Shown: positions 12,392 through 37,266 of the stretch, one piece after another
How the letters are laid out: every line of letters begins with the position of its first letter
Numbering within the stretch: the first letter of the stretch is position 1
From: a virus
Lineage: Duplodnaviria; Caudoviricetes
IMG/VR virus record: IMGVR_UViG_3300012122_000001
Coordinates: 1 to 64,000 of that record
DNA: 64,000 nucleotides
Reading direction: 5' to 3' (one strand)
The notes under the pieces: model-generated
Database searches by the model: none
Seen by the model: only the letters and a program-made list of their open reading frames with translations
Told to the model about the DNA's origin: nothing
Position numbers and translations under genes: made by a program

Positions 12392-13933
12392 ATGAGCTCG
12401 ACCGTCGAAGGGCTCGAGCGCGGAGTCATCGGCACGGACAAAACCATCCAGAGAATGCACCGTCTGGTCGCGCTGGGAAAGCTCGACCCGACGATCCAGA
12501 AGATCGCGACCTGGATCCGCCTGGGCGTGCCCAAGGACGTGCGCGCCTCGACGAAGCTCGCGGCCGACGCGATCTTCAACTGGGTTCAGAAGCACGGTCT
12601 CTTCCAGCGCGACCCGTTCCAGATCGAGAAGATCGAGCATCCTATCGAAGCGATGCGGCCGATCATCGAGGCGCGCAAGGCCGGGACGTACACCGGACCG
12701 GCGCTCTTCGTCGGCGACTGCGACACGATGGCGGGCGTGTACACGGCGAGTTTGCTCGGCGTGCTCGGCTTCCAGTATTCCTTCGAAACCGCCAAGGTCG
12801 ATCCGGATCGCCCCGACGAGTTCTCTCACGTCTGGGTCTCCGCGCGGATCGGGAACGAGTGGTACCCGCTCGACCCGTCGACGCGCGGGGCATATCCCGG
12901 CTGGCGTCCTCCGGTCAAGCCGGAGCAGTTCAAACGCTGGCCGGAGGGACCGATCGAAGACGTCGTGAAAGGGTCCGACATGAGCGCATTCAACAGCGGC
13001 ATGGGGGATAACGGAGAAGACGAAGGCGGCGACGAGCCCGTCATCGAGAACAACGATTCCCCCCTCACCGGAGTCGACGCCGAGTACGCCCAGGACTACA
13101 TCGGATACGGGATCCCCAGGGACTTCGGCAGCGGCCCAGGCGTGATCCCGCCCGGCAACTTCGAGAGCCTCCAGCTCCTTCCGCCGCACGACACGCAGAT
13201 CCCGGCGGCCGACCTGGAGCGGGACATGCATCTGCTCAAGGCGGCGCCGCGCCTGGACCCGTCCGAACGGATCCAGAGCCTCGCCGGTCAGCCGAACGAC
13301 CACGGCAACCCCTACTATCGCGGGGGTGGTCGCCAGCCCTACATCAAGGTCGAGCGCAAGATGTACCCGCCCGGCTCGCGCTGGAACGAGCCGTACGGCA
13401 AGGACACCATCCGCTACCAGAAAACCGACAAGTACATTTCCGTCAAGAGTCCCGAAACACCCGAAAGACGAGTGGAGGTCAAGATGGACCAGCCGATGCT
13501 GATCCGCAGGAGAAACGTCATGACGCCCCCTCAGCGGATCCCGTTCGGCGCAATGGACGGCATGGGCGACATCGATCCCAATACCGGGATCATGACCTTC
13601 GGCTCGACGCCCGCGCCCACGGCGACGCAGACGGCAGCGGCGACCGCCGGAACGTCCGTCTGGGATTCGATCCTGGGCGCATTCTCGTCCGTCGCGAAGG
13701 CCGCCGGAACGATCGTTCCGTCGGTGCTCCAGTCGAAGACCGCGCAGGCCGTCGCGAGCGCGACGAACCGTCTCGCGGGCTCGAACGTGCTGACGGCCGG
13801 GCAGCTCACCAACCCGACGCCCTGGTACAAGAACCCCGTCACGATCGGCCTGGGGCTCGCCACGCTCGGCGGCCTGGGCTACGTCGTCATCAAGATGCGC
13901 CCCGGCATGGGCGGCCGGAGGCGTCGCCGGTAG
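12392..13933 (+). CDS. transglutaminase-like (papain-fold) cysteine protease with C-terminal membrane anchor; candidate virion maturation protease
   Basis: Cys-His-Asp triad in GDCDTMA, FSHVW, WYPLDPS; C-terminal TM (VTIGLGLATLGGLGYVVI) plus RRRRR. Confidence 0.8.
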   Translation: MSSTVEGLERGVIGTDKTIQRMHRLVALGKLDPTIQKIATWIRLGVPKDVRASTKLAADAIFNWVQKHGLFQRDPFQIEKIEHPIEAMRPIIEARKAGTYTGPALFVGDCDTMAGVYTASLLGVLGFQYSFETAKVDPDRPDEFSHVWVSARIGNEWYPLDPSTRGAYPGWRPPVKPEQFKRWPEGPIEDVVKGSDMSAFNSGMGDNGEDEGGDEPVIENNDSPLTGVDAEYAQDYIGYGIPRDFGSGPGVIPPGNFESLQLLPPHDTQIPAADLERDMHLLKAAPRLDPSERIQSLAGQPNDHGNPYYRGGGRQPYIKVERKMYPPGSRWNEPYGKDTIRYQKTDKYISVKSPETPERRVEVKMDQPMLIRRRNVMTPPQRIPFGAMDGMGDIDPNTGIMTFGSTPAPTATQTAAATAGTSVWDSILGAFSSVAKAAGTIVPSVLQSKTAQAVASATNRLAGSNVLTAGQLTNPTPWYKNPVTIGLGLATLGGLGYVVIKMRPGMGGRRRRR

Positions 13934-13938
13934 GTTCG

Positions 13939-14220
13939 ATGCGCTACATCCGCTACGTCAAGAGACCCGGCATCGGAGATTCCGTCACCGACGGACTCAC
14001 GACCGGCTTCACCGCTTCGGTCGCCGAGGCCCTGGAGCCGAAGATCCGGACCATCCTGAAGGAGGACATCCTTCCCATGGTGATGGTGGGTCTCGTCGCG
14101 GGCGCCGTAGCGGCGTCGGTCATCGGATCCTGGTTCGCTTCGCGCCCCTCGCGGTCCGGAGTCCGGTCGAACCCGGTCTCCAGGATCCACATCCCTCTGC
14201 GTCGCCGGAGGACCGCATGA
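13939..14220 (+). CDS. small virion membrane protein
   Basis: One TM, GIGD and RSNP motifs, basic tail; ATGA coupling. Confidence 0.7.
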   Translation: MRYIRYVKRPGIGDSVTDGLTTGFTASVAEALEPKIRTILKEDILPMVMVGLVAGAVAASVIGSWFASRPSRSGVRSNPVSRIHIPLRRRRTA

Positions 14221-17200
14221 GCTACCAGGATCTCAAGTCCAGGATGGTCGCGCACCTCAAGAAGTGGGCGCGTGGAATGGTTGATTCCGGCGAGGGCATG
14301 AACTTCAGCATCGAGTCGGCGATTTACTGGTTCGCGAACGACTACCACAACGGCGGCGGAAGCGAGCTCTACCAGATCCTCTCGACCTCGAAATTTCGTC
14401 CCGGTCCGTCTCATCGGTCGGTCGACGATGAAGGCGACGAGATCGACAAAATGATGTACGAGGAGCTGGAGCGGTACTTCATCCCAAAAGGAAGAGCGAG
14501 GAACAACGGTCACACGGGCGTTCGAAAGAACCCTCCGTCCTTCATCCTGATCGACAAAGAGACCGGACTCGTCGTGTACACGAAGCGGGCGACCGGCGTC
14601 GGCAGCGCAGCGATCTCGGCTTGCGTGAAGCGTGGTCACGAGCTCGCGGACCAGCACAACCGCGTCTACACCGTCTTCCTGGACATCCGCGGCCTCTCTC
14701 GTGGCATGAAGGTCCATGTCCCGGCGATCTATGCGCTCGGGATCACCGAAGAGATCCATCCGGGCGGTCAGTCCGTCCGTCCGAATTCTCGCGGCGCCGT
14801 ACGGAAGAACATCTTCACCTTCAACAATCCGAAGCTGAAGTTCAGCGATCTCTCGGTCGGCGAGACGTTCGTGTTCGCCTCCCAGGACGATCCCAAGTTC
14901 CTGACCAGCGGAATGGCGCGCGGTCCGTGGATCAAGCGCAGCGCCAGGACGTACGAACACGTCGACGACGTCGGCAAGCAGATCTCGGAGCGGAGGTACG
15001 GCGGCGGCCATATCGCCGTCGGAAGCGCCTCCGTCGGAGTGAAGCGCATGAGCCTCGGACGGGAACTGCCGAAGCTCTGCCCTCACTGCGACGCCTCGTA
15101 TATCGGCACGCCCCAGATGCACAAGTTCGAGTGCGCTCCCCAGGGCGGAGCGAACCTGTACCAGGAGAACCCGCGCCGCAGATCCGCTCGTCGGAACCCC
15201 ACGATGGGATCCTACGAGGTCTTCGTCGGGAACATCGGGCAGGTCTACGACGGGAACGATCGGGCGAAGGCGCAGCACTCCTTCGACTACTACGTCGCCA
15301 TGTCGAAGCGTACCAGCGGTCGCGCGAGCGGCGAGGATGTCGCCCTCCTCTGTGAAGGCGAACTCAGCCAGGAGTACATCGGAAGCAAGGGACGCGAGCG
15401 CGGAGATCATCGGCGCGGCGTCCGCCGGAACATCTTCACCTTCAACAATCCTCCGTCCGGCCCGGCAGATCCGGCCGCGGCGCGCGAGCTCGAGGTCTAC
15501 ATCGAGAACGACGCCGACCTCTACCGGCAGCAGTTCGTCCCGATCGTGAAGAATCTGATGCTGAAGCGCCGGAAGGGCGTCTACAACCGCGAGCTGGCGG
15601 TCAAGCTCTTCATGTACCTGATGGACGCGGGCGCGAAGAAGTACGTCGCCGAGTACGTCCGCTCGTCGTCGCCCGGCGCGCCGATGCCGAAGATCGACGG
15701 CACCTTCAACAAGAACACGCGCCTGATGGCCGCGCGGTCCTTCCTGGAGTCCTTCGAAGGCGAGGCGGAGCTCGGGAACTACGACCGGATGATCGGTCCG
15801 GTCTCGAACCCTCGGGGGGCAAACGTGCGGAAGAATATCTTCACCTTCAACAACCCGAAGCAGCGTCCTCTGAACGAGATGGAGAACGCTGCCAGTCTGG
15901 TCGGCCTGACCGTCACGACCTGGGCGCCGGGCGACGGCGTGACGCGCTACCGCTTCTTCAAGGCAGGCGGAAGTCGGTACGCCGACTATCACCAGGGCGG
16001 CGCTCTCTACACGGCGCTCGGCCGGAAGGAAGCGATCGCGTTCATCAAGTCGTACGGCGTCGGCCGTAGCCGGATGAATCCGCTGAACCAGAAAGAAATC
16101 GAGCAGATGCGCGATCGCGAGAGGTTCTACGTCGGTCGCTCTCAGAAGTACGGTTCCGAGGGGAAGGAAGCGGATGCCGCTCACTTCCGAGGCGCCGCGC
16201 AGGAGAGTCGGAACATTCGCGAGCGTCACCATGCCAAGGGCACGGATTGGTGGCCGAATCCCCCTGTCTGCTCGAACCCGCTCGTCCGCGGCGACAAGCT
16301 TCCTCACAACCTCCGGATGGAAGTGCGGAATCGGTTCATCTACCGCTGGACGTCCGACAACGATCGTCGCGCCGAAGTCTACGGCCTCTGCCCGCACTGC
16401 AAGACGCGGGGCGGGAAGCCCTCCGAGACCAACATCGCTTGCCGTCAGGTCCACCCGACGATCCCGCTTCAGACGGACGAGCAGTGGCTCAAGACGCACG
16501 CCTTCCACGTCACGAAGGCGGGTCGTCTCAGCGAGCGGCATAACCATGCGGAGCCGGGCTACATGGCCGACGACGAGACCAGGAAGAATCCGATGTCGCG
16601 CCGCGAAGCCGCAGGAGAGATCCGGGAGATCCGCGGCGCGAGAAGCAAGATGCGCTACTTCCATCGGCTCGGCCGTCCGGAAGCTGCCGAGTTCCAGGAC
16701 GGATACGCTCACGGAGTCGCAGGAGCGGTTTACCGCCGCGGTCCGAAGTCCGCGCGTCGTGTCGTCGATCGCGCGGTCCGCTCGAATCCGCTCCTCCAGA
16801 CCGTGATGCTGGCGAATCCTGGATCGGTGAAGACTTTCAGCGAGATGCAGGACGTGGGCAAGGCGAAGTACGTTGTGAACTATCACGACGGAGTGAAGGT
16901 GCATCGCGACGGTAGCCCGTTTTTCGACATCGCCATTTTCAGCAATCGGGCTAAGAAAGATCAGTTCGTCAGGAAGTTGGAGAGCCTTGGATTTACTCGG
17001 GGCGCCCTTCGGAACCCGCCGATCTCCACGCAGTGGGATCGGATGACGCGCCGCCAGCGCGAGGCGCTCCTGGAGATCGTCGGCTACGATCGTGACTTCT
17101 CCGGCGGCATGACGCTGTCCACCTGGGGCGCGCTCTCTCCCGCCGCGAAGCGGAAGCTCGAGGCTCAGTGGCTCGACACGACGTCAAGCGGCGGAACGAC

Positions 17201-17858
17201 GCGCCGTCGGCGCCGCTCGCCGGTCGCGGTGAATCCGCTGACCAGGAAAGAAGCCGCGTCGACGGTCAGAAGCGCAAAGTTCGACCTTCGATACGGGTCG
17301 GCGTTCGCGCCCGGACACACGCGATCCGGCTCGGCCGGTCGCGCGTTCGGGAAGGCAACGGTCGTTCGTGACTTCGGCCCCAGGTCAGCCGGTCGGGCCG
17401 CGAGCAAGATCATGAAGCGTTCCGTCGACCTGACGCACGCCGTTCGTACGAACCCCGGCATCAAGTACCCGAAACCCGGCACGAAGATGACCGTCGCCCA
17501 GGCGATGGACCTCGCGCGCCGGATCGGCAACAAGGATCTGATCAAGCAGTGCGAGGAAGCCGCGAAGCTCCAGAAGGTCGCGAACCGCGGCGCGAAGGTC
17601 GTCATCTGGAAGGAGCTGCCGATCGGCTCGCCGAACAAGATCGACATGGTGACGGCCTTCGCCCATTACGGCGACTCTCCGGAGACGATGTACCGGCCGC
17701 CGAAGGGCTCGAAGAAGGGCCCGCATATGTACCGCCACAAATGGGGCGAGGGAACCGGCAAGAAGAAGTCCGTGCCGATCCTGGCGGCGCCCGGCGGCAA
17801 AGCACTCATCACGCTGATGGGCAGCGACCAGAAGACCGGCGATTGGATGAGAGGCTAG
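14217..17858 (+). CDS. modular polyvalent protein, about 13 small domains separated by Asn-Pro linkers
   Basis: 1213 aa; 16 NP dipeptides counted, mostly R-x-N-P or hydrophobic-(A/N)-N-P, spaced about 60-110 aa. Confidence 0.85.
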   Translation: MSYQDLKSRMVAHLKKWARGMVDSGEGMNFSIESAIYWFANDYHNGGGSELYQILSTSKFRPGPSHRSVDDEGDEIDKMMYEELERYFIPKGRARNNGHTGVRKNPPSFILIDKETGLVVYTKRATGVGSAAISACVKRGHELADQHNRVYTVFLDIRGLSRGMKVHVPAIYALGITEEIHPGGQSVRPNSRGAVRKNIFTFNNPKLKFSDLSVGETFVFASQDDPKFLTSGMARGPWIKRSARTYEHVDDVGKQISERRYGGGHIAVGSASVGVKRMSLGRELPKLCPHCDASYIGTPQMHKFECAPQGGANLYQENPRRRSARRNPTMGSYEVFVGNIGQVYDGNDRAKAQHSFDYYVAMSKRTSGRASGEDVALLCEGELSQEYIGSKGRERGDHRRGVRRNIFTFNNPPSGPADPAAARELEVYIENDADLYRQQFVPIVKNLMLKRRKGVYNRELAVKLFMYLMDAGAKKYVAEYVRSSSPGAPMPKIDGTFNKNTRLMAARSFLESFEGEAELGNYDRMIGPVSNPRGANVRKNIFTFNNPKQRPLNEMENAASLVGLTVTTWAPGDGVTRYRFFKAGGSRYADYHQGGALYTALGRKEAIAFIKSYGVGRSRMNPLNQKEIEQMRDRERFYVGRSQKYGSEGKEADAAHFRGAAQESRNIRERHHAKGTDWWPNPPVCSNPLVRGDKLPHNLRMEVRNRFIYRWTSDNDRRAEVYGLCPHCKTRGGKPSETNIACRQVHPTIPLQTDEQWLKTHAFHVTKAGRLSERHNHAEPGYMADDETRKNPMSRREAAGEIREIRGARSKMRYFHRLGRPEAAEFQDGYAHGVAGAVYRRGPKSARRVVDRAVRSNPLLQTVMLANPGSVKTFSEMQDVGKAKYVVNYHDGVKVHRDGSPFFDIAIFSNRAKKDQFVRKLESLGFTRGALRNPPISTQWDRMTRRQREALLEIVGYDRDFSGGMTLSTWGALSPAAKRKLEAQWLDTTSSGGTTRRRRRSPVAVNPLTRKEAASTVRSAKFDLRYGSAFAPGHTRSGSAGRAFGKATVVRDFGPRSAGRAASKIMKRSVDLTHAVRTNPGIKYPKPGTKMTVAQAMDLARRIGNKDLIKQCEEAAKLQKVANRGAKVVIWKELPIGSPNKIDMVTAFAHYGDSPETMYRPPKGSKKGPHMYRHKWGEGTGKKKSVPILAAPGGKALITLMGSDQKTGDWMRG
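14802..14831 (+). repeat. in-frame linker repeat RKNIFTFNNP, copy 1
   Basis: cgg aag aac atc ttc acc ttc aac aat ccg. Confidence 0.9.
15423..15452 (+). repeat. in-frame linker repeat RRNIFTFNNP, copy 2
   Basis: cgc cgg aac atc ttc acc ttc aac aat cct. Confidence 0.9.
15828..15857 (+). repeat. in-frame linker repeat RKNIFTFNNP, copy 3
   Basis: cgg aag aat atc ttc acc ttc aac aac ccg. Confidence 0.9.
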
Positions 17859-17868
17859 GAGAATTCAC

Positions 17869-18987
17869 ATGATCGGAGCACTTGTATTTGCGAACCCCGG
17901 ACGGCCTGTAGCCGCTCGGAGGAGACGTTCGCGTTCCCGTACCGCCCGCACGACGGGCAGGAGAGTCAAGATGGCACGCACCCGTTCGCGCCGTCGCACC
18001 GGGCGGCGCATCCGGCGGAATGCCAAGGGGCATTTCGTCACCCGGCGCCGGTCGACCCGGCGTCGGCGTCGGAATCCCAGCGGCTTCATCAAGGTCGGCC
18101 GCCGCTGGAAGAAGATCACGAAGTACGCCCGTCGGCGCCGTCGGGGCAGCCGGAAGGGCCAGATCCGGGCCTTCAAGTTCCCGAAGCGGTATCGGCGGAG
18201 CCGCCGGGTTCGTCGGAACCCCGTGGTCGTCGCCAACCCGCGTCGGAGCCGTAGCCGTCGGGCGCGGCGCAACCCGTATCGGCGTCATCGCCGGTACGTC
18301 CGTCGGAATCCCAGCGTCGCGTATCGGCTGACGTCGGATCCGGTCGCGGCGATCAAGTCGGCGATCATGTCCGCGTTCTCGATGGACACCGTCGAGACGC
18401 TGTTCCACATGGGCCTGGGCTTCGGCTCGTCCATCGTGGTCAGCCGGACGCTGATCAAGCAGTGGCTGCCGGTCCTCGGCGAGACCGCTCTCGGCCGGGT
18501 CGGCGGCACGTTCGGGACCGGCGTGGTCCTGACGGCGCTGTCGAGCTTCCTCAAGAACTCGAGCCTCACGGCCCGGTTCCTGACCGGCTCGCTGTTCGCC
18601 ACCTTCTGGCAGGGCCTGTCCGAAGTCGTGTCGGCCTACCAGCCTCAGCTCAAGGAGTTCATCCCGACGCTGTCGGGCGCTCCGGAGACCGAGGAGTTCC
18701 GTCGCGCGATCGAGCGGGAAGTTCTCCGCGAGCTCAAGGGCGGCGTGAACGAATACCTGCCCGCGGCGGGCGCCGAGGGGTACTCGACGTACCTCCGCCC
18801 GGCCGGGATCGAGTACCTCCGTCCCGCCGGGACGGAAGCGTACCTCACCGAAGTGGGCGCGGAGCGCGCCCAGGGAGGCATGGGCGCCTTCCTGACCGAC
18901 CGCGAGGTCAGTCGCGTCGAAGCCCGGCCCAGCGGGGTCGGCGAGGACGAGTTCGGCAGGGGCGACACCCTGCCGGAGCGGTTCTAG
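17869..18987 (+). CDS. Arg-rich (protamine-like) core/membrane protein
   Basis: About 56 Arg and no Asp/Glu in first ~150 aa, six NP motifs, central hydrophobic helices, C-terminal YLxPAG repeats; strong AGGAGA RBS. Confidence 0.8.
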   Translation: MIGALVFANPGRPVAARRRRSRSRTARTTGRRVKMARTRSRRRTGRRIRRNAKGHFVTRRRSTRRRRRNPSGFIKVGRRWKKITKYARRRRRGSRKGQIRAFKFPKRYRRSRRVRRNPVVVANPRRSRSRRARRNPYRRHRRYVRRNPSVAYRLTSDPVAAIKSAIMSAFSMDTVETLFHMGLGFGSSIVVSRTLIKQWLPVLGETALGRVGGTFGTGVVLTALSSFLKNSSLTARFLTGSLFATFWQGLSEVVSAYQPQLKEFIPTLSGAPETEEFRRAIEREVLRELKGGVNEYLPAAGAEGYSTYLRPAGIEYLRPAGTEAYLTEVGAERAQGGMGAFLTDREVSRVEARPSGVGEDEFGRGDTLPERF

Positions 18988-19002
18988 GCATCAATCAAGG
19001 AA

Positions 19003-19146
19003 GCCCTGGGAGGGAAACCTCCCAGGGCCTCCCCCAGGGCGGCCCAGTGCGGGCCTTCCTGGGGGAGTCGGGCAGGTAAGCACCAGCCCGTCCCGGTGGG
19101 ATGTAGCAGCAGGCCGAGAGGCCGCTTGAGGTCATTGTGACCTCAA
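19003..19146 (+). other. multi-hairpin structured RNA leader of capsid gene
   Basis: 11-bp stem with GAAA loop (19003-19028); 10-bp stem 19029-19038/19058-19067 with inner GGCCC/GGGCC; GGCC-GAGA-GGCC; 9-bp TTGAGGTCA/TGACCTCAA. Confidence 0.6.
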
Positions 19147-19182
19147 CCCGCAGAATGGTGCTTGATCAAGGAGATCGAGAGT

Positions 19183-19821
19183 ATGCCTCCTCCCATGGAT
19201 GCGGGCGCGCCGATCCAGGTCGTGCAGCCCTACTACAAGATCGTGCAGGGCGTTCCTGCGGCGATCGTCCGGTCGTACAAGCAGCCCCTGTACGACTCGG
19301 AAGTGATCCTCTCCGCGTCCCCGACGCGGGAGTTCACGCTGTACTCGAAGCCCGTCGGCCAGATGCTGAACGACGCGGCGACGACCAAGACGTTCGTCCA
19401 CTCGAACCAGACGCAGGCCGGGTCGCTCGGCACGCCTCTGAGCTTCGACGTGTACGGCTTCAACAAGCGCGTCTGGGGCGGCGTCGCGACCAAGGTCATC
19501 ACCATCGGCAACTCGACCCTGGTCGAGGCCGCGGGCGTGGCCGAGGTCATCTTCGGTCAGGACACGAAGTTCCTGACGATCCCGATCGAAGACGTGCCGT
19601 CCGGCGTGGACTACGAGGGCATGGGCGCGACCGATGCGCCGCACATCGGCCTCGGGCAGTCCGACAACCTGTACCGCTTCGACGTGGGCGGTCGGGCGCT
19701 GCACATCAACTCGACGGAGCCGTATCAGGTCAAGATCTCCTGGCCGTCGAGCCTCTCCGGCATCACCGGCAACCTGCTGTTCCGGTGGTTCATGCGCGGA
19801 ATCCTTTACAAGGGCGTCTAG
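19183..19821 (+). CDS. probable single jelly-roll major capsid protein
   Basis: 212 aa, beta-strand alternation throughout (KQPLYDS, FTLYSKP, SFDVYGF, YQVKISW, FRWFMRG); AAGGAGA RBS; flanked by hairpins; follows core protein. Confidence 0.55.
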   Translation: MPPPMDAGAPIQVVQPYYKIVQGVPAAIVRSYKQPLYDSEVILSASPTREFTLYSKPVGQMLNDAATTKTFVHSNQTQAGSLGTPLSFDVYGFNKRVWGGVATKVITIGNSTLVEAAGVAEVIFGQDTKFLTIPIEDVPSGVDYEGMGATDAPHIGLGQSDNLYRFDVGGRALHINSTEPYQVKISWPSSLSGITGNLLFRWFMRGILYKGV

Positions 19822-19854
19822 AAAAAACGTCCTTGTGCCTTCAGGCGCAACTTC

Positions 19855-19879
19855 GGGTGGCCCCTTCGGGGGCCATCCC
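19855..19879 (+). other. GC-rich UUCG hairpin after capsid gene (no U-tract)
   Basis: GGGTGGCCCC-TTCG-GGGGCCATCCC. Confidence 0.6.
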
Positions 19880-19963
19880 TTGATGAGCCCGACGAAGAGT
19901 CAGTAGCGTCCCGCACTGTTCGCGGTCCGCTTCCCTGCTGAGTTAGCTCGGAAGGAGACGACG

Positions 19964-20917
19964 ATGAGCTGGTCCCAGGTTCCGACATTCCTCCGCATCT
20001 CGGACAAGGATCCCGATCCCAAGAAGCGCGGGATCATCTACATGAACCCGGCGAAGGACTGGGTTCAGCCGTTCGAGCTGACGGTTTCGAAGCCGAACCA
20101 AGTCATCCGTCTCGCCGCGGGCGAGCAGCGCGGGCCCTTCCCGCTGACGGCGCAGTACGACGGCCCGATCGAGGTCTTCTACGTCAAGGCCAACGTCTAC
20201 GAGGACGACGACGGGGAGCCCGGCGCCCTGGTGAACTCGTACGACATCGACGTGCTCCTGGAGCATCCGGGCAAGCGGATCCAGTTCATGAACCGCTTCG
20301 TCCCGCTCGACGCGATGTCCGGAAACGCCGGGCTGCCGTACGTCCTGCCGGAGACGATCTTCATCCCGCCGGTCCAGTCGCTCAACCTGACGCTCGTCAA
20401 CAACGATCTCGCCAACGCGCGGCACGTCGAGTTCGTCCTGGGCGGCATCAAGTTCTACCCGAACATGGCGCCGTCCGAGATCCGCGGCGAGACCTGGAAG
20501 TACGTCGACCGCCGCGAGCGGACCTACGCCTACCTCATGACCACCGACGAGGAAGCCGTCGTCGCCGCCTCGGCCACCACGCCCTTCTTCATGACGATCC
20601 CCGACAACGCGGATCTCGAGGTCTTCAAGCTGACGGCCAAGGCGACCGCCGCCTTCCGCTGCCGCGTGCGCGACGGTCAGAACGACCGCGCCCTCACCGG
20701 AGACCTCGTCCACTCGGCGCTGCTCTTCGGCGGCCACCAGCCGCTCTCGGGCAACGCTGCGGTCACCGGATCCGGCGGTCTCTTCCCGGCACGCTGGGCG
20801 ACCTCGTGGCTCATCCGGCGGTCGACGAAGGTCCAGCTCGATCTCCAGGACATCAGCGCCGCGGAGAACGAGATCAAGGTCATCTTCGGAGGCAGAAAGA
20901 TCAGCTATGTCAGCTAA
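19964..20917 (+). CDS. probable double jelly-roll-like capsid protein (internal tandem duplication)
   Basis: Two ~150-aa beta-rich halves align by eye: IEVFYVKA/LEVFKLTA, GLPYVLP..IFIP/GLFPARW..WLIR, LNLTLVN/VQLDLQD, VEFVLGGIK/IKVIFGGRK. Confidence 0.6.
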   Translation: MSWSQVPTFLRISDKDPDPKKRGIIYMNPAKDWVQPFELTVSKPNQVIRLAAGEQRGPFPLTAQYDGPIEVFYVKANVYEDDDGEPGALVNSYDIDVLLEHPGKRIQFMNRFVPLDAMSGNAGLPYVLPETIFIPPVQSLNLTLVNNDLANARHVEFVLGGIKFYPNMAPSEIRGETWKYVDRRERTYAYLMTTDEEAVVAASATTPFFMTIPDNADLEVFKLTAKATAAFRCRVRDGQNDRALTGDLVHSALLFGGHQPLSGNAAVTGSGGLFPARWATSWLIRRSTKVQLDLQDISAAENEIKVIFGGRKISYVS

Positions 20918-21617
20918 AAATCCGCCTCGCCCTCCTCGGCGCCCCAGGCGCGGAGGAATGGGCGATGACCAGTACTTCTACGAGGGATGGCGCGACGCAG
21001 GCCAGGGGGAACCCAGGCCGATGGACGTCGTGTCCGATCCCAACTGCCCGCCGCCCAAGGAAGCGCAGCAGTGCGGGAAGGTCAAGCTCAACTGGGTGAA
21101 GTTCCCGGCCTTCAACCAGCCGCCGTTCTTCGCCAAGCCGCTCATCAAGGCCCGGTCGTCGCTCGTGATCCCGGCCGGGGACATCGCGCTCATCTTCGAC
21201 CGCGAGATCGCCGATCGCCAGCGTGCGATCGTCTCTCTCGTCGGGATCGACGTCGCGCCGATCGCGCCGCTCCTGAACTCGCAGCTTGAGTTCTGGTTCC
21301 AACTCGGCCGCCAGGGCGTTCCCGAAGTTTCGAAGAACGTCATTCCGGTCTGGGACGACCAGAATCCGACCGGCTACGGCGGGTCGACCCCGATCCAGTC
21401 CGGCCGGACGACCGTGTGGCCCGGTGTCGCGACCCCGGAGGAGTTCTTCAAGAACGGCCTCCAGTTCGGCGTACGCGGCCGGGGCCAGCTCCAGGGACTC
21501 ATCGAGAACAAGTCCGCCGTCGACGTCACGGTCCGCGGGATCCTGGGTTACTACTACTACTGGTCCAGCGGCCCTGGTGGTGCCTCGGAGTTCGAGGCCG
21601 GAGATTTCCAGGCGTAG
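20907..21617 (+). CDS. probable minor/penton-like jelly-roll capsid protein with basic propeptide
   Basis: MSAKNPPRPPRRPRRG-GMGD N-terminus, then beta-rich domain ending VTVRGILGYYY. Confidence 0.45.
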   Translation: MSAKNPPRPPRRPRRGGMGDDQYFYEGWRDAGQGEPRPMDVVSDPNCPPPKEAQQCGKVKLNWVKFPAFNQPPFFAKPLIKARSSLVIPAGDIALIFDREIADRQRAIVSLVGIDVAPIAPLLNSQLEFWFQLGRQGVPEVSKNVIPVWDDQNPTGYGGSTPIQSGRTTVWPGVATPEEFFKNGLQFGVRGRGQLQGLIENKSAVDVTVRGILGYYYYWSSGPGGASEFEAGDFQA

Positions 21618-21626
21618 GGAGAATCG

Positions 21627-22106
21627 ATGCCCGCACCACTGAACCCTAACCTCTGGCCGTCGGTCCTCCACGATGAGGACGGCAACCCGATCTCGGCAAC
21701 GAATCCCCTGCCCGTAACGGGGCCGGGTGGCGGTCCGGTCGAGAACGTCCTCACCCAGGTCCGGCAGGTCCAGAACGAAGAGACCACCACGCCCCTGGGG
21801 GCCGGTGCGACCTTCAACGGCGCCGATCGGGACTGCGAGAATTACGAGAGCTTCGGAATCTCCGTGTTCCTCGATCCCGACGCCGGGCAGGCACTGAACT
21901 GTTCGGTCCTGGTCGAGAACAGCATCGACGGCGTGACCTGGAGGACGGTCGACACGGTCTCCGTCGCGGGCGCCGCTGATGCGTCATCGACCCTGAACCG
22001 CGTCTACTCGGTCACGCGCCGGTTCTACCGGGTCAGCGTGATCAACAACGACGGATCGAACGGACTCGACGCGACCGAAGTCATTTCGATGATGAAGCCC
22101 ATCTAA
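21627..22106 (+). CDS. vertex/spike-associated beta-sandwich protein A
   Basis: NPLPV anchor segment, TTTPLGAGATFNG..SIDGVTW..YRV pattern typical of virion beta-sandwich proteins. Confidence 0.55.
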   Translation: MPAPLNPNLWPSVLHDEDGNPISATNPLPVTGPGGGPVENVLTQVRQVQNEETTTPLGAGATFNGADRDCENYESFGISVFLDPDAGQALNCSVLVENSIDGVTWRTVDTVSVAGAADASSTLNRVYSVTRRFYRVSVINNDGSNGLDATEVISMMKPI

Positions 22107-25867: not shown

Positions 25868-25871
25868 GAAG

Positions 25872-26699: not shown

Positions 26700-26703
26700 C
26701 GAT

Positions 26704-27561
26704 ATGACCGTCCCCGCCTACTGGAGCACCGAATTCCGGAAGTCCATAACGGCACCGTTCACGGATGTCGCGAGCTGGCTGACTGCGATTCGGACGATGC
26801 TGACCGTGACGCTGCCGGTCGGTTCGCGCTGGACGGAGAGTAATCCAGGCGTCTCGAACAGCTACACGTCTCCGGCAGATCCGGTAAACGGGAACGTGAT
26901 CGGGATGAATTTCACCCGTACTTCAGCCGTGCGCCTGTATATGCTTTCCTTCTACCAAGTCCCGCCAGCCGCCGGTGCCGGTATCCTCCAGGGAGAGTGT
27001 GACATCTCCGGCACCGTCCAGGCGAACATCTTTGCGGGCCCGTTTCACTTCTGGACAGAAGTCGTAAACGGCGGCCTCCCCAACGGCGACTTCATGGGTG
27101 TCGTTGGGGTTGCTACGGTGCCGGAACCGGAAAATCAAATCACGAACTTCGGATTCGGAAAGCACTCCCGCAACGTCGCCCAGAACCCCTTCAATCTTCA
27201 GGCCGACATGTGGATGACCCTCGACGCAAACGTAGACGGCGGATTCCCGGTTCGCGCGCGCTGTCAGGGGCCATACTTCGTCGCTAACGCTGCGGGCTAC
27301 GATTTATTTACAGCCGCAGGAAGCCCCGTATACTATCCTGCTGTCGGAGTCACCTATCCGACGCTTGGATCAAACGCGAACACACGGTTCTGCGGAACTT
27401 TCCCGCAGTTTGTCTGGGTCGACAAATCGTGGCTGGCGGGTCAGTTTGTTCCGGTTCCCATCGACGTCGGAGTGACCGGCATCTTCCAGGTCGTGAGTTC
27501 GCTCATGACCCCGAGCAACGGCGGTTCCAACGGCGCGAAGCTCGCGATAAGGGTGGCGTAG
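26704..27561 (+). CDS. virion surface protein, paralog 3
   Basis: Shared blocks WLTAIRTMLT..LPVGSRWTE, LQGECDISG.VQANIFAGP, FNLQADMW, RARCQGPYFVANA. Confidence 0.75.
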   Translation: MTVPAYWSTEFRKSITAPFTDVASWLTAIRTMLTVTLPVGSRWTESNPGVSNSYTSPADPVNGNVIGMNFTRTSAVRLYMLSFYQVPPAAGAGILQGECDISGTVQANIFAGPFHFWTEVVNGGLPNGDFMGVVGVATVPEPENQITNFGFGKHSRNVAQNPFNLQADMWMTLDANVDGGFPVRARCQGPYFVANAAGYDLFTAAGSPVYYPAVGVTYPTLGSNANTRFCGTFPQFVWVDKSWLAGQFVPVPIDVGVTGIFQVVSSLMTPSNGGSNGAKLAIRVA

Positions 27562-31038: not shown

Positions 31039-31332
31039 ATGGACGAGATCCTTGGAGCTCTTGACCCTTCAACGCTTGGCATGGGCGTCGACGCTTCGGC
31101 TGTTGTCGCAGTGTCGGAAGCGACGAATTTGATCAAAGGAGACATGCGGAAGTGGGGTCTCGATGCCGTCGTGGGGAGGTTCTATCCGGCAATCCCGTTT
31201 TTGATTGCTTTTGGCCTGGGTCTGTTGTACGGGAATGCACTCTGGTCCGACGCTTTATGGTATTCTGGGAAGATAGGGCTGCTATCCAGCTTTGCTTGGC
31301 AAGGCTATAGGGTATCGGTGAAGGGCAAATGA
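31039..31332 (+). CDS. holin-like small membrane protein
   Basis: 97 aa, 2-3 hydrophobic helices, basic tail; lower GC. Confidence 0.5.
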   Translation: MDEILGALDPSTLGMGVDASAVVAVSEATNLIKGDMRKWGLDAVVGRFYPAIPFLIAFGLGLLYGNALWSDALWYSGKIGLLSSFAWQGYRVSVKGK

Positions 31333-32672
31333 GAATTTATGTGCCGATGGAATCGGGGCTGAACCCCCGAGAGATCGCCGCCATGCGGCGCCTCTCGAGG
31401 AGTTCGCTCGCGATCATTGCCGACGAGCTTCACGAGCCGACCTCCAGGAGCACCGTGAAGAGGGTTCTCTCCTCCCGCGATCCGGAGCGGGAAGTGATCA
31501 GGCAGGTCGCCGAAGAGGTCCAGCGCGCCGTCTGGGCCATCAGCACCGTCCGTCACGCCGGACTCGGGGACCACGAGTACGACGACATGGAGCTCATGCC
31601 CGACATCGGCTTCGGAAGCTTCTTCAAGAAGGTCGCCAAGAAGATCAAGGGCGTCGCCAAGAAGGTCGTCGACATCCACAAGAAGGTCTTCGACAAGACC
31701 GTCAAGCCCGTCATCAAAGCGACCGTGAAGGTCGCGAAGAAGTCCGTCGAGATCACCAAGAAGACCGTGAAAAAGGTGATCGAGACGCAGAAGAAGGTCA
31801 TCAAGAAGATCGGGAAGGCGATCAAACCGTACATCCCGATCATCCTAACGGTCGTGGGCGCGGTGCTGGCGCCGTTCACCGGAGGCGCCTCCCTGGCGGT
31901 CGCCGCTGCCCTGAACGCGGGCTACATGCTCGCCATGAAGGCGAAGGCAGCGAGAGCCGCGAAGAAGGAAGGCCGCGCAGCAGCCGCCCAGATGCAGGCC
32001 GAGGTGAGCGCGCAGACGGCCGACCTGAACCGCCAGCTCGACCAGCTCTTCACGGAGAACCAGGGGGTCTTTGCCGCCGCAGGTATCTCCCAGGCGGCCT
32101 GGAACGCGATGAGCCTCGAGCAGCGCCTCGCGGTCGTCGAGCGGATCAACTCCGGCAACATGCCGTCGTCGCAGTCGAATGCCGACGCCGCCACGGAGGC
32201 CCAGGGGAATCCTCCGACGACCCAGACGCAGACGTGGCGGGATGCGATCAATTCCTCGCCGGTCATGCAGCAGTGGCGTGACGAGGCCGGAGACTCCGAC
32301 ACCGCGACCGCCGGAGTCCAGACCCCGACCGGGACGTACGACGTCTACGTCGAAGGCCGGAAGGTCGGGACCGCCCAGACGCTCGACGAGGCGTCCTCGA
32401 TCATGGCGAACAACTCGAAGGCCGGGGACCGGGTCGAGATCGTGCTCAACGGTCGCTCCCTGGGCCTCAAGATCGTGACGGGCGGCGGCGGGGTCATCTC
32501 GATCCCCGCCGGTCAGGCCGATGCGGTCCGCGCGATGTCGAGGTCCGAAGTCGACGCGATGCTCTCCAGGGCTGGTCAGACAACGACCGCTTCGAGCGGA
32601 TCCTCCGGCGGGCTCGTGCTTGCCCTCGCCGTCCCGGCGGCGATCCTCTTTGCCATGCATTCGAAGGGTTAG
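31329..32672 (+). CDS. internal virion protein with Lys-rich amphipathic segment (candidate membrane penetration / DNA delivery protein)
   Basis: GLGD..GFG followed by SFFKKVAKKIKGVAKK (~25 Lys in ~75 aa), hydrophobic hairpin, coiled coil, C-terminal TM. Confidence 0.7.
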   Translation: MRIYVPMESGLNPREIAAMRRLSRSSLAIIADELHEPTSRSTVKRVLSSRDPEREVIRQVAEEVQRAVWAISTVRHAGLGDHEYDDMELMPDIGFGSFFKKVAKKIKGVAKKVVDIHKKVFDKTVKPVIKATVKVAKKSVEITKKTVKKVIETQKKVIKKIGKAIKPYIPIILTVVGAVLAPFTGGASLAVAAALNAGYMLAMKAKAARAAKKEGRAAAAQMQAEVSAQTADLNRQLDQLFTENQGVFAAAGISQAAWNAMSLEQRLAVVERINSGNMPSSQSNADAATEAQGNPPTTQTQTWRDAINSSPVMQQWRDEAGDSDTATAGVQTPTGTYDVYVEGRKVGTAQTLDEASSIMANNSKAGDRVEIVLNGRSLGLKIVTGGGGVISIPAGQADAVRAMSRSEVDAMLSRAGQTTTASSGSSGGLVLALAVPAAILFAMHSKG

Positions 32673-32675
32673 GCG

Positions 32676-33347
32676 ATGGAAAACAATCTTCCCGCGGCTG
32701 CACATGCCTTCGCGACGGCCTTCGTCGCCGACATGGAGGCCGCCCGGCCGCTCCGTGCCGCGCTCATCCGGAAGCAGATCAACCGGGAAGGCATCACGCG
32801 CATCGTCACCAGGGACCTGGATGCAGCGCGCCTGGGGAGGCGCGGCCCCGCGCTCTTCCCGAACCTCCGCGCCGTCGCGAAGGAGTTCCTGGACCAGGAG
32901 AAGCGGCGCGCGCCGTACACCGGGATCTCCCAGTTCCACAACCGCGCGGCCGGGTACATGCAGGTCGCTCCGGCGTACGAGCGCGAGGTCTACGGCCTGG
33001 GGCAGTGGGACGCGATCATCGGCGCGATCGGCGCTGCGGCAGGAGCGGCTTCGAGCATCTACGGCGCCAAGATCACCGCCGACGCCCAGAAGCAGCTTCT
33101 CAACCTCGAGCAGCAGAAGGTCAACGCCCAGATCCAGATCGCCGAGATGCAAGCGAAAGCCGCCCAGGTCCAGCTCGCCGCGGCGAACGCTGCTGCATCC
33201 GGGACTCCGGTGAAGATCGGTCCGGACGGCCTGCCGGTTCCTTACACCGAGGCTTTCGGTCCAGAGATCGGCGGAGTTCCCGTCATCCCGGCCGTCGCCG
33301 CCGCGTTCGCGCTCGCCATCGCCGGATACTTCGCCTTCAAGAAATAG
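32676..33347 (+). CDS. virion membrane protein
   Basis: Basic N-region, GLGQ motif, Ala/Gln coiled coil, C-terminal TM + KK. Confidence 0.7.
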   Translation: MENNLPAAAHAFATAFVADMEAARPLRAALIRKQINREGITRIVTRDLDAARLGRRGPALFPNLRAVAKEFLDQEKRRAPYTGISQFHNRAAGYMQVAPAYEREVYGLGQWDAIIGAIGAAAGAASSIYGAKITADAQKQLLNLEQQKVNAQIQIAEMQAKAAQVQLAAANAAASGTPVKIGPDGLPVPYTEAFGPEIGGVPVIPAVAAAFALAIAGYFAFKK

Positions 33348-33360: not shown

Positions 33361-34107
33361 ATGCCTGCTTTGAAGATGAACCAGATCGCAGGTCGGATGA
33401 AGGTCATCCGCGCGCCCCAGGTGATGTATGTCCAGGAGGCGACGTTCATCCCGTCCGGAATGCATGGGATCTCCAGTTCCGCCAGGGAGGCCGTCGTCTC
33501 GTCGCTCTCGAAGGAGATGGCCGCGCGCGGAATTCCGCCGGGCCGGGCCCGCCACGTCGTCAAGATGGCCTCGATGCGGATCCACTCGCGCTGGAACCGC
33601 GGGCGCCACCTCGGCTGGGGCAAAGGCCTGGGCGACGACGAAACGTACGGCCCTCCGCTGCCGAACGACATGGTCGCGGCGAACAAGCTCGCCCTGGTCC
33701 AGACCAAGGGCACCGAGTACCAGAGGCAGCACGCGGCCTTCATCAATCAGCTCCCGTCCTCGGGGGCGAGCGACAGCGACAAGCTCAAGGTCCGCAACGG
33801 CATCGAGAACCTCTACAACGAGTGGACCGCGTTCGCCGTCGACCTGAAGGGCGGCCTGCCGCCGTTCGAGTGGAACCGGACGGATCCCGTCGACGCGATC
33901 CTGATCGCCGTCCGGGACGATCTCCGCGACACAGTGAACCTGATCGACGCGAACAAAGCCCAGGCCGTTCTCGCCAAGCAGATCAAGGAGCTCGTGAAGC
34001 CGGGCTCGCTGCCCGGACTGCCGAACCTCCCGAAGATGGACCTTCCCTGGTACGTCTGGGTCGGGGGAGCCATCGCCGCGGCTGTCGCGGCAAAGTACGC
34101 GCTCTAA
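33361..34107 (+). CDS. virion membrane protein
   Basis: Basic N-region, GLGDD motif, C-terminal PWYVWVGGAIAAAVAAKY TM. Confidence 0.7.
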   Translation: MPALKMNQIAGRMKVIRAPQVMYVQEATFIPSGMHGISSSAREAVVSSLSKEMAARGIPPGRARHVVKMASMRIHSRWNRGRHLGWGKGLGDDETYGPPLPNDMVAANKLALVQTKGTEYQRQHAAFINQLPSSGASDSDKLKVRNGIENLYNEWTAFAVDLKGGLPPFEWNRTDPVDAILIAVRDDLRDTVNLIDANKAQAVLAKQIKELVKPGSLPGLPNLPKMDLPWYVWVGGAIAAAVAAKYAL

Positions 34108-34373: not shown

Positions 34374-34388
34374 CTCTCTTTGTAGTGC

Positions 34389-34470: not shown

Positions 34471-35811
34471 ATGAATCTTAAACCCCAGCTCATCGACATG
34501 ATCCGGACGGTTCCGGAGGTTGCCGTACGTCTCTGGTGCGGCGGGAAGGTCTTTCCGCACGACGCGGGCGTTCGGATCGAGTACGAAGGGGTCATGACCC
34601 AGGTGTCCGTCGAAGCCTACACGGCGGCGGATGAGGTCTCGAAGATCCTTGGGATCCGCTGGGGCGGCCGGATGCTTCGGTCGGTCCAGGACGTCCTGGA
34701 GCTCCGCCACGCCGCCGAAGATGCCTACCTCGAGAACCTTTTCCATCAGACCGACGTCCCGAAGGCGCTCTTCGTGCCCGCGGGCGTGACGGCCTCCGGC
34801 TACTACAGAGCGATGATCCCGTCGGACCTCGCGTACGAAGGCGGGAAGGTCATCAGTCACTGGACCTCGTCGGTCGATCTTTCGAAGGTGATGCGTTACG
34901 ACATCCTCTGGGTTCAGCTCATCACGTCGGCCGTCCTGATCGCCATCATCAAGATGGCGAAGACCCAGGGCGTCAAGATCGTGTTCGACATCGATGATCG
35001 TCTCGACTCGATTCCAGCCGAGAATCAGGCGTCGGCCGTCTACGGAGAAGCTGGGAAGCAGGCAGAGCTTCGGGAGATGATCAAGCTCGCCGACCTCGTG
35101 ACGGTCTCGACAGAACCCCTGGGGAAGTACATCCTCGAGAACATGGGCGCGAAGCGGGTCAAGGTGCTCCCGAACCAGCTCACCGCGAACGTCGCCCCCA
35201 GGAGACACCCGCCGAACTCGGCGTATACACGGATCCTTTGGGCCGGATCCCCGACCCACAAGCGAGACCTCGCGATCGTGGCGCCCGCGATCCGGAACCT
35301 GCTCAAGAAGTACAACGGGAAGCTCCGGTTCACATGTTTCGGCGAGCGCCTGCCGGAGGCCCTGGCGGACTGCTACAACTGGATCGACCTGAAGGACCCG
35401 GTCGACTTCGACCAGTACCACGACGCGATCGCGACGATCGCCGCAGACTTCGGGATCGCGCCGCTTGAGGCGAATCCGTTCAACGAGTCGAAGTCGGCGA
35501 TCAAGGCCCTGGAGTATGCCTCGGCCGGATATCCGATGCTGCTCTCCCCGGTCGGAGAGTACCCCGTCATCTGCAAGGCAGGATTTCCGGCAGAGCTCGT
35601 CGAAAACGACGGCTGGGAAGCCGCGATCGATCGGATGATCGGGATGTCCAGGGAACAGCGCGACGATCTGGGCAAGCGCGGCATGAAGTGGGTCCTCGAG
35701 AACCGCTGCATCGGCACCTCGAAGGCCTCCCAGTGGGCCGATACGATCACCGAGGTCGCGGCCTATCCGCGTGAAGAGGTGGAAGAGTCGAGGCTGAAGC
35801 TGGTGACATGA
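34471..35811 (+). CDS. GT-B (GT4-like) glycosyltransferase
   Basis: GYYRAMIP, KIVFDIDD, LADLVTVST, ILWAGSPTH, DFGIAPLEANPFNESKSAIKALEY. Confidence 0.85.
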   Translation: MNLKPQLIDMIRTVPEVAVRLWCGGKVFPHDAGVRIEYEGVMTQVSVEAYTAADEVSKILGIRWGGRMLRSVQDVLELRHAAEDAYLENLFHQTDVPKALFVPAGVTASGYYRAMIPSDLAYEGGKVISHWTSSVDLSKVMRYDILWVQLITSAVLIAIIKMAKTQGVKIVFDIDDRLDSIPAENQASAVYGEAGKQAELREMIKLADLVTVSTEPLGKYILENMGAKRVKVLPNQLTANVAPRRHPPNSAYTRILWAGSPTHKRDLAIVAPAIRNLLKKYNGKLRFTCFGERLPEALADCYNWIDLKDPVDFDQYHDAIATIAADFGIAPLEANPFNESKSAIKALEYASAGYPMLLSPVGEYPVICKAGFPAELVENDGWEAAIDRMIGMSREQRDDLGKRGMKWVLENRCIGTSKASQWADTITEVAAYPREEVEESRLKLVT

Positions 35812-36086: not shown

Positions 36087-36087
36087 G

Positions 36088-36588
36088 GTGAGCGAAGCGG
36101 AAGAAAACGGCGAAGCGGACTTCCCGTCCGAAAAGGAAATCAAGGAAGCCTTCCCGAAGCTCGACTCCAGTAAAGTGAGCGAGCTCTTCAACATCCTCAA
36201 GAACGCCACGAGCCCCGACGCCCACGACGACGATCCGGACGACGCGATGGAGAAGGCCAACGCGATCCTCGACGGCCACGGGGTCGAAGGGATCAAGGCC
36301 GAAGACGGATATCAGGTCGACCGCTTCTGGCGCGACACGATTCTCATCTACGTCAACCAGGGCGACACCTACGAAACGACGATCTGCTACGACACCGAAG
36401 AGGGCGCCTTCTTCGTCGGCTCCTGGGGCGACTTCGTGGAGGAATGGGAGAAGGGCGGCGAGGAGGACGAGGACGAAGAAGAGGGCGAGGACGAAGAAGA
36501 GGAAGAGGAGTCCGAGGACGAAGAGGACGAGGAAGAGGATGACGACGACGAGACCTCAACCCTCGACGAAGAGGTCAAGGAGAACTAG
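36088..36588 (+). CDS. hypothetical phage protein with long acidic tail
   Basis: GHGVEGI..YVNQGDTYETTI..VGSWGD domain, then ~30-residue D/E run; GTG start. Confidence 0.7.
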   Translation: MSEAEENGEADFPSEKEIKEAFPKLDSSKVSELFNILKNATSPDAHDDDPDDAMEKANAILDGHGVEGIKAEDGYQVDRFWRDTILIYVNQGDTYETTICYDTEEGAFFVGSWGDFVEEWEKGGEEDEDEEEGEDEEEEEESEDEEDEEEDDDDETSTLDEEVKEN

Positions 36589-37266
36589 ATGTCTCTGACC
36601 GCAGAACAGTACCGGGCCCAGCTCGAAGCCCAGCGCGCGCTGGTCTACCGCGGCGTCCACCCGTCGGTCGCCGGTCAGCTTGTCCGGAGGGCCGCCCAGC
36701 GCGTCGCCCAGCGTGGCGGCATGGGCTGCAACGGGGACGACTGCTGCGGATCCTGTCGTGAAAACGGCCTGGGCCGGATCCAGATGCGGAGTCTCCGTCG
36801 GGACCTCGACCCGACGATCAAGCCTCGGCCGGTCATGGCCGGAGAGCAGTGCGTCCGGATCCAGGAGGTCCCTGGGGACGAGACGCGCCTCTACCGGCAG
36901 CTCGACGACTACCGCAGTCGCGGCTGGAACGTCATGGAGATCCAGAAGACCAAAGGCTTCCCGTCGGTCGCCGTCTACTGGGCCTGCCCGCCCGGCCGGG
37001 TGCCGATGGAGTCCCAGGGGCAGATCCTCCAGTCGCAGGCCTGGGGCGCCCCGCTCTACGTCGCAGGCGTCGGTGAAGGCGCCACCCCCGACGTTCTCGC
37101 CCAGATGCGCGCGTACGGTGACCTGGAATCCGTCAAGGCCGTCCGCGAGGCGATCACGCCCTGGCTCTGGGTCACGAGTCTGATCGGCTTCGGTATGGGC
37201 CTCATGAACACCCGCCGGATCGCGATCATGTTCCGGAAGCACCTGGGCGGAAGGAAGCGCGCGTGA
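36589..37266 (+). CDS. virion membrane protein
   Basis: GMGC, GLGR, GVGE motifs; C-terminal TM + basic tail. Confidence 0.7.
   Translation: MSLTAEQYRAQLEAQRALVYRGVHPSVAGQLVRRAAQRVAQRGGMGCNGDDCCGSCRENGLGRIQMRSLRRDLDPTIKPRPVMAGEQCVRIQEVPGDETRLYRQLDDYRSRGWNVMEIQKTKGFPSVAVYWACPPGRVPMESQGQILQSQAWGAPLYVAGVGEGATPDVLAQMRAYGDLESVKAVREAITPWLWVTSLIGFGMGLMNTRRIAIMFRKHLGGRKRA

Follow-up and report, generated by a model that had tools for sequence, protein, structure and literature searches.

The window analysed in this study, a stretch of 64,000 nucleotides of viral DNA (IMG/VR record IMGVR_UViG_3300012122_000001), was found to contain a short glycine-based motif, G-[LMIV]-G-[DE], in the proteins of its late gene block. 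The window is the start of one contig of 72,725 bp, which represents a complete viral genome because it contains a direct terminal repeat of 123 bp at its ends. The guanine-cytosine (GC) content of the genome was 63%, and codon-position GC separated the real genes cleanly from the shadow open reading frames (ORFs). The genes of the plus strand formed a single late block from nucleotide 9599 to 41879, and this late set comprised 36 genes encoding 10,006 amino acids. Among the products of the minus (early) strand were methyltransferases, a primase-polymerase/D5 helicase, two further proteins of the AAA_24 and DEAD_2 helicase types, an ATPase of the HerA type, and a SprT-like protein.

A preliminary description of this DNA had proposed the motif as a maturation cleavage code shared by virion proteins. 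The 13 coordinates that it quoted all translated as given there, in the frames of long plus-strand ORFs, and two further sites with Asp or Glu at the fourth position were found in a 672-amino-acid and a 405-amino-acid protein (Table 1). Most of the carriers contained a transmembrane (TM) segment, usually at the C-terminus, and the arrangement reported earlier, in which the motif follows a basic segment and precedes a C-terminal TM segment, held for most of them. A simple hydropathy scan found a TM segment in 13 of the 36 late proteins, as against 5 of the 46 early ones. The carriers are probably virion proteins, judging from the position of their genes beside the gene of the capsid candidate p317.

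Table 1. Motif-carrying proteins, motif sites and the capsid candidate in the window.
Feature	Position	Strand	Description
672-amino-acid protein, site	11234–11245	+	Well-aligned segment; only [IL]-G-[DE] kept, first Gly is M/L/F in relatives
p513	12392–13933	+	Predicted N-terminal transglutaminase-like domain (residues ~1–190), long variable linker, C-terminal TM segment, poly-Arg end
p513, site 1	12998–13009	+	Residues 203–206, GMGD, directly past the putative catalytic domain
p513, site 2	13559–13570	+	Residues 390–393, GMGD, linker before the TM anchor
p93	13939–14220	+	Small TM protein; 10-residue Arg-rich basic leader ends in motif 13969–13980 (GIGD)
p372	17869–18987	+	Arg-rich N-terminal ~160 amino acids, hydrophobic core, C-terminal tandem units ending in motif
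p372, motifs	18877–18888 (GMGA), 18934–18945 (GVGE)	+	Last motif precedes short acidic tail with conserved C-terminus
p317	19964–20917	+	Capsid candidate; no motif; fixes nature of gene block
p236	20907–21617	+	Pro/Arg-rich leader of very variable length ends in motif 20955–20966 (GMGD); conserved body after
405-amino-acid protein, site	22868–22879	+	Absent from the single homologue found
p447	31329–32672	+	Motifs 31560–31571 (GLGD) and 31608–31619 (GFGS) flank acidic spacer; two TM segments
p223	32676–33347	+	Motif 32994–33005 (GLGQ), C-terminal TM segment
p248	33361–34107	+	N-terminal helical module, motif 33625–33636 (GLGD), C-terminal anchored domain
p225	36589–37266	+	Conserved motifs 36718–36729 (GMGC) and 36766–36777 (GLGR); 37066–37077 (GVGE) not conserved

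The G-[LMIV]-G-[DE] pattern was present 10 times in the late genes, where 1.82 copies were expected, and none of 5,000 per-protein shuffles reached 10 copies. The early genes of the genome contained one copy against 1.55 expected; that copy lies outside the window, and the early genes of the window contained none, in agreement with the earlier remark that the form with Asp or Glu (D/E form) was not seen in the replication proteins. In a look-elsewhere scan of 40,000 patterns of the same shape, however, the pattern ranked 4th (P = 2.5e-5); runs of acidic or basic residues scored higher, and its neighbours in the ranking resembled chance patterns. The motif-enrichment check suggested in the preliminary description therefore gave a clear late excess, but a count that by itself did not survive the look-elsewhere correction; because the pattern was chosen post hoc and was only 4th in the scan, the window alone proves nothing. 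The four whole relatives showed a weaker excess of the four-residue form or none, with 6 copies against 1.9 expected in one genome (G001) and 2–3 against about 1.2 in the others. In each of the five complete genomes, the capsid-strand genes contained about twice the expected number of copies of the three-residue pattern G-[LM]-G, and the other genes had no excess. These five counts are not independent because the genomes are related, and sorting the genes of the relatives into late and early ones by strand is a crude approximation, as the strand layout differs among them.

The sole early-strand G-L-G-D was found at residue 9 of an enzyme encoded beyond the window (70427–71254, minus strand), the N-terminus of which is conserved in four genomes. 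It was rejected as a junction since it lies at this conserved enzyme N-terminus, where it probably contributes to a nucleotide-sugar-binding fold.

Conservation of the G-[LMV]-G core at protein junctions

The relatives used in our study were seven loci obtained via the capsid gene, four whole genomes, and five more distant loci obtained via p513 homologues, and broad homologue sets were gathered for p513, p236, p248, and p372. A related-locus search with the glycosyltransferase (34471–35811) found none, and the distal genes came from the whole related records. At 34–85% identity, the G-[LMV]-G core was held in place, usually inside segments that were gapped or unalignable. The motif was located at leader/body, spacer or tail junctions, i.e., at the borders between variable, often basic parts and conserved bodies. 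Judged from these alignments, homologue conservation is decisive for the core at 12998, 13559, 13969, 18877, 18934, 20955, 32994, 33625, 36718, and 36766, and it was weak at 31560 and 31608, which had few homologues. The site at 11234 is probably of a different kind, and that at 22868 probably matches the pattern by chance.

The alignment of homologues, which had been named as a check on the proposal, upheld the position-specific core and left the acidic residue as optional. At the fourth position, D was preferred over E, N, Q, A, G, and H but was not required, and neither 37066 nor 22868 was conserved. Conservation did not follow the earlier division into canonical and variant sites, as the canonical 37066 belonged to the unconserved sites whereas variants such as 36718 and 36766 were conserved. 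The proteins p248, p236, p93, and p225 and the tail of p372 carried the same core and had no other similarity among them. As far as aligned sequences can tell, G-[LMV]-G is a short linear signal common to at least seven unrelated late proteins of the virus and its clade, and selection on it is supported in several of these unrelated proteins. The comparison confirmed G-[LMV]-G at junctions as the apparent real signal, with Asp or Glu as a frequent but optional follower.

The copies might instead have no specific function and represent Gly-rich flexible hinges of membrane-associated proteins, caught by a pattern that was selected afterward. Such an explanation would fit the 4th rank of the pattern in the window, the two of ten D/E-form sites that were not conserved, and the frequent occurrence of G-x-G in TM and Gly-rich segments. 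We consider it very improbable, as generic hinges keep no exact residues, whereas Gly, Leu/Met, and Gly were each kept here at 79–100% with adjoining columns that were gaps or random.

The leader together with the motif was present in 9 of the 12 homologues of p93; the other three were leaderless and started at about the end of the motif. A near-identical Arg-rich leader (Met-Arg-Tyr-Val/Ile-Arg-Arg-Pro followed by the motif) headed both the p93 family and, in four relatives, an unrelated protein family about 430 amino acids long. Leaders ending in the motif were also found in p236, in a family of about 300 amino acids that the relatives encode, and in additional proteins of the more distant ones. 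In the 24 leader-bearing homologues of p236, G17 was conserved in 23 and G19 in all 24, and the hydrophobic position between them (Phi) was occupied by M (14), L (8), V (1), or I (1), followed by D (8), N (6), or G (5) at the fourth position.

The Met, Leu, or Val of the motif could in principle be the true start, which would make the leaders untranslated and the motif an artefact of ORF calling. These residues are the ones encoded by ATG, TTG/CTG, and GTG, and gene callers place the start of p236, and of most homologues of it, at the motif Met; as the database gene calls begin there, part of the signal in the p236 family may be an alternative start. Against an artefact, the Phi codon was ATC, GTC, CTG, CTC, or TTC at 8 of the 13 sites of the window, and most of the sites lie far inside the proteins. 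The p236 leaders kept their frame through many insertions and deletions, varied mainly at third (synonymous) codon positions, and contained CTC or GTG-CTC at Phi in some relatives; this synonymous variation, together with CTC at Phi, indicates that the p236 leader is translated. We give the start-codon explanation an exceedingly slight chance, and it was rejected for all of the sites but possibly p236.

In p447, a Lys-rich amphipathic stretch was found directly after the motif-flanked acidic spacer. Its N-terminal part had one close homologue only (locus L004), with G-L-S-D and G-M-G-K at the two motif places; in the other relatives of p447, its place was taken by a short leader, rich in Arg, with G-L-G at its end.

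Of the proteins in which the motif marks modules or tails, p372 contained tandem units terminating in G-[MV]-[GSN]. Its final G-Phi-G was present in 13 of 13 close relatives and in about 27 of the 32 tail-bearing members among 38 cluster representatives, with a variable fourth residue. In the 21 homologues of p248, the first Gly and the L/M were kept in all, the second Gly in 17 (Ser in the other 4), and D in 19; the surrounding linker was basic, rich in insertions and deletions, and unalignable apart from the motif. Some relatives of p248 contained two helical modules in tandem with a motif after each. The p223 motif was kept in the three of five homologues that have that region, and the p225 sites at 36718 and 36766 were conserved in 4–5 of the six homologues. 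All six kept the Cys cluster between the two conserved p225 motifs (36715–36780).

The first ~160 residues of p372 (17869–18350) contained about 40% Arg, a likeness to protamine and adenovirus core protein that is one of composition only. The p372 calls of some relatives (180–250 amino acids, few Arg) were devoid of the Arg-rich part, which may be separately encoded or optional. A 261-amino-acid protein of L004 (17593–18378) was found to consist of a p223-like N-terminal part (82%) fused to a p248-like C-terminal part (41%) exactly at G-L-G-D, which suggests module exchange at motif boundaries. The proteins p248 (33361–33640) and p225 (36589–36730) appeared to have in common a helical module of about 40 amino acids at the N-terminus, followed by an Arg-rich stretch and the motif (G001, 39742–40668).

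The candidate protease p513 and the role of the motif

Two of the conserved sites lie in p513 itself. At residue 203, an aligned G-Phi-G was present in 89 of 113 homologues, with D (46), E (19), or N (13) as the fourth residue, and the ten columns after the motif were nearly all gaps. At residue 390, it was present in 96 of 113, followed by D (42), Q (29), A (15), or E (8). The mean conservation of the two sites was 0.82 and 0.88, respectively, against 0.07–0.46 in the ten residues on each side (113 homologues, 34–69% identity), and they ranked 4th and 1st, respectively, among the 3-residue windows of residues 191–513. A TM helix was located at residues 482–500.

The model of p513 residues 1–203 had a mean predicted local distance difference test (pLDDT) score of 88. 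Structural alignment with VIA-align gave a Z score of 13.8 for the putative protease 3kd4 (root-mean-square deviation 3.0, 140 aligned), and scores of 10.4 for factor XIII, 9.6 for 3isr, 9.2 for LapG, and 7.8 for CPR-C4. Foldseek likewise returned transglutaminase-like proteases and transglutaminases (probability 1.0, TM-score about 0.42). The modelled N-terminal domain thus appears to have the core fold and the Cys-His-Asp order of the transglutaminase-like/papain-like superfamily, and the triad Cys110-His146-Asp161 was invariant in 113 of 113 and 67 of 67 homologues. A precomputed match to PF01841 was present in two distant homologues of p513, and a profile search with p513 against the PDB sequences returned noise only. 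On the model, p513, the gene of which heads the late operon, is the best candidate for a maturation protease, and it is itself a carrier of the motif.

The motif most likely marks cleavage sites because it stays in place across more than 100 relatives. To the fuller reading, in which it is the recognition and cleavage site of a virus-encoded maturation protease with p513 as the best candidate, we assign about an even chance. The enzyme would be anchored in the viral membrane via its C-terminal helix and would cut after the second Gly, so that the hydrophobic Phi would occupy P2 (the S2 pocket) and Asp, Glu, Asn, Gln, or Ala would stand at P1'. In papain-like (clan CA) enzymes, specificity is governed by the S2 pocket, and a hydrophobic P2 is preferred. 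A cut after the fourth residue (Asp) is unlikely, as that position tolerates D/E/N/Q/A/G/H. The shared leaders would be stripped and may serve as targeting sequences beforehand, p513 would release itself via its own two sites with the catalytic domain freed at site 203, the Arg-rich p372 would have its tail and repeats trimmed, and the pro-modules would be parted from the membrane-anchored bodies. The Gly-based processing programme that the preliminary description had in mind is thus retained in its selection, its junction location, and a candidate cysteine protease that carries the motif, but without the D/E core, the site register of the adenovirus protease (adenain), or an adenain-like enzyme.

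A prepilin-type leader (Gly / Phe plus a hydrophobic stretch) was ruled out, as no hydrophobic stretch follows the motif, and so was a Tat signal, as there is no h-region. A sorting signal of the GlyGly-CTERM kind was also ruled out, since the conserved motifs do not adjoin TM helices.

Several points weigh against proteolysis by p513. Every step beyond the conservation of the motif at junctions is one that we infer, the enrichment within the window was no better than that of the best chance patterns and is suggestive, not decisive, and many database gene calls begin p236 at the motif Met. Copies of the motif were also present within TM segments and within p219, a folded, jelly-roll-like protein, so that the motif is not sufficient by itself. 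Pfam (E ≤ 0.01) gave no match for p513, PF01841 included. The structural neighbours of p513 included the phage-type cell-wall endoisopeptidases PeiW/PeiP (Z 8.7–9.2), transglutaminases, PNGase, and arylamine acetyltransferases; the fold therefore does not fix the chemistry, and since it includes enzymes other than proteases, p513 may act in entry or lysis or as a cross-linker.

The sites could accordingly be cut by another enzyme, of the host or an unrecognised viral one, with p513 acting as a virion-associated cell-wall endopeptidase or a transglutaminase. The presence of archaeal-virus pseudomurein endoisopeptidases and true transglutaminases among its neighbours speaks for such a role, as does the fact that membrane-containing phages carry lytic enzymes in the virion. 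Among the 40 proteins scanned with Pfam, however, the only protease-like domain besides p513 was that of the early-strand SprT-like protein, and two strongly conserved motifs in the linker of p513 are hard to explain if this protein has nothing to do with the motif. Cleavage by another enzyme appears quite unlikely on this evidence.

A further possibility is that the motif is not cleaved at all and is retained in the mature protein as a docking or assembly signal, to which a common partner such as the capsid inner face, a scaffold, or a membrane insertion factor would bind. Conservation at the exposed linkers of unrelated proteins fits a binding motif equally well, and the peptides that load cargo into protein shells are likewise short and rich in Gly. 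A tripeptide with two Gly residues would nevertheless contribute little to binding energy, removal is a better fit to the leaderless orthologues, which start at the motif, and to the tandem units, which end in it, and the two best-kept copies lie in the protease candidate. We regard docking as unlikely, and the cleavage code is the explanation that we favour.

Comparison with known maturation systems

The closest working analogue in bacterial viruses was found in the prohead-protease systems of T4 and the phiKZ-like giant phages (gp21, gp175, SPN3US gp245). In these phages, a three-residue motif is reused in many head proteins and propeptides of 10–20 residues, common to unrelated proteins, target proteins into the prohead; the propeptides can hold extra motif copies, and the protease cuts itself at several copies in its C-terminal part (PMC5694885). 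The window resembles them in the short N-terminal propeptide-like leaders, presumably removed, that are common to unrelated proteins and end at the motif, and in the several motif copies of the protease, here the candidate p513. It differs in the motif, which ends in Glu in those phages, (L/I)-X-E, (S/A/G)-X-E or A-X-E, whereas here it is Gly-Phi-Gly with an optional acidic residue. It also differs in the enzyme and the shell: the enzymes of the T4/phiKZ-like phages are serine proteases of tailed HK97-fold phages, whereas a Cys-His-Asp candidate and a double jelly-roll-like capsid model were found here. No PHROG or Pfam match to an assemblin-like serine protease was present among the late proteins scanned. 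The likeness to T4/phiKZ, and equally that to adenovirus, is one of function and not of homology.

The capsid candidate p317 was modelled with two beta-sandwich halves (pLDDT 73). Its best Foldseek matches were enriched in double jelly-roll capsid proteins (PBCV-1 Vp54, iridovirus, FLiP, phiCjT23, STIV), with an E value of 1e-4 and modest TM-scores of 0.33–0.43. The model accordingly looks like a major capsid protein with two jelly rolls, and because of this resemblance the adenovirus analogy is functionally apt.

Adenain processes pVI, pVII, pre-mu, pVIII, pIIIa, and pTP at the consensus (M/I/L)-X-G-G/X or (M/I/L)-X-G-X/G, where the slash marks the cut; it belongs to clan CE with the order His-Glu/Asp-Cys. 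Both viruses would belong to the double jelly-roll capsid lineage, and both have a Gly-based motif with a hydrophobic residue in several late proteins. By analogy, the carriers here may include an Arg-rich core-type protein and a masked amphipathic segment of the membrane-active type. Unlike in the adenain sites, Gly flanks Phi on both sides here, and if Phi is taken as P4, P2 becomes the variable fourth residue and not a conserved Gly. Unlike adenain, p513 has the Cys-His-Asp order and a predicted transglutaminase-like fold. The comparison with adenovirus drawn in the preliminary description is therefore kept for function, but neither the site register nor the enzyme class fits. No Pfam match to Peptidase_C5/Ulp1 was found in the 40 proteins scanned, which left out small ORFs. 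Ulp1-type proteases are listed for the eukaryotic double jelly-roll branch (PMC11161782), and no protease is named in a survey of the prokaryotic members (PMC5894146).

In fold and in the order of the catalytic triad, p513 matched the LapG type and CPR-C4. LapG regulates adhesin release in the periplasm; its cleavage site is a short motif of small residues (di-alanine) located in a linker of its membrane-proximal substrate. Unlike the role proposed for p513, that of LapG does not concern virus assembly, and no sequence similarity to p513 was detectable.

To our knowledge, motif-coded proteolytic maturation has been described for tailed phages and eukaryotic double jelly-roll viruses and not for prokaryotic ones. 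We suggest only tentatively, with rather less than even confidence, that this large clade of bacterial viruses of about 65–75 kb, with capsid proteins of the double jelly-roll type, evolved an adenovirus-like maturation independently of the eukaryotic viruses, in which a membrane-anchored transglutaminase-like cysteine protease would cut at Gly-Leu/Met-Gly. By these cuts the shared targeting leaders would be stripped, the protease itself would be released, a DNA-condensing core protein rich in Arg would be trimmed, and an amphipathic segment active on membranes would be exposed. Provided that the sites are cut, capsid maturation would have evolved convergently, the enzyme being non-homologous and the grammar of the sites new, and a simple rule would be available to predict the mature virion proteins of hundreds of unannotated soil and sediment viral contigs. 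The candidate enzyme and its putative substrates form a testable pair, and both can be expressed without culturing the virus.

The viral clade and further features of the genome

The virus is a member of a large uncultured clade. Metagenomic relatives were many, with 113 homologues of p513 on contigs of up to 75 kb, and the gene order near p513 was kept among them. A tblastn search of p513, p317, and a 1213-amino-acid late protein against GenBank phage records returned no real relative. A PHROG and Pfam scan of the late proteins from 9599 to 22106 assigned no family except for one weak tail-protein match; the remaining late proteins scanned gave a few generic domains (BNR/Calx-beta, glycosyltransferase, GP88, PAPS reductase), none of them in motif carriers. 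In a scan of 185,579 prokaryote species genomes, the sole match was a 14-kb contig of a metagenome-assembled genome (JBOGJN010000436.1, L034) from a bin labelled Thermoanaerobaculia (Acidobacteriota); another homologue was labelled Thermoplasmata.

The only candidate seen for a packaging ATPase was a HerA/FtsK-type protein of 642 amino acids (52834–54762, minus strand) with the HerA central domain PF01935. Its gene belongs to the early strand and is separated from the capsid gene by 30 kb. No match to a terminase or portal was found among the proteins scanned. In the distant relative L033, an ORF with faint LAGLIDADG matches (10257–11120) was present between the homologues of the 219-amino-acid protein and the capsid protein.

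Paralogous runs of late genes were found at 25061–27561 and at 21627–22106 / 23905–24348. Three adjoining late proteins of 268–291 amino acids all matched one gene of the same relative, and late proteins of 159 and 147 amino acids matched each other's homologues. The dipeptide Asn-Pro was found as a second recurrent motif, with 53 copies in the late proteins against 23 expected, often in the form [R/K]-x-N-P. The 1213-amino-acid protein (14217–17858) contained 16 copies against 2.8 expected, and p372 contained 6 against 0.4. The p93 family kept Asn-Pro in its C-terminal tail, and in the family of the 1213-amino-acid protein it adjoined a conserved G-Phi-G.

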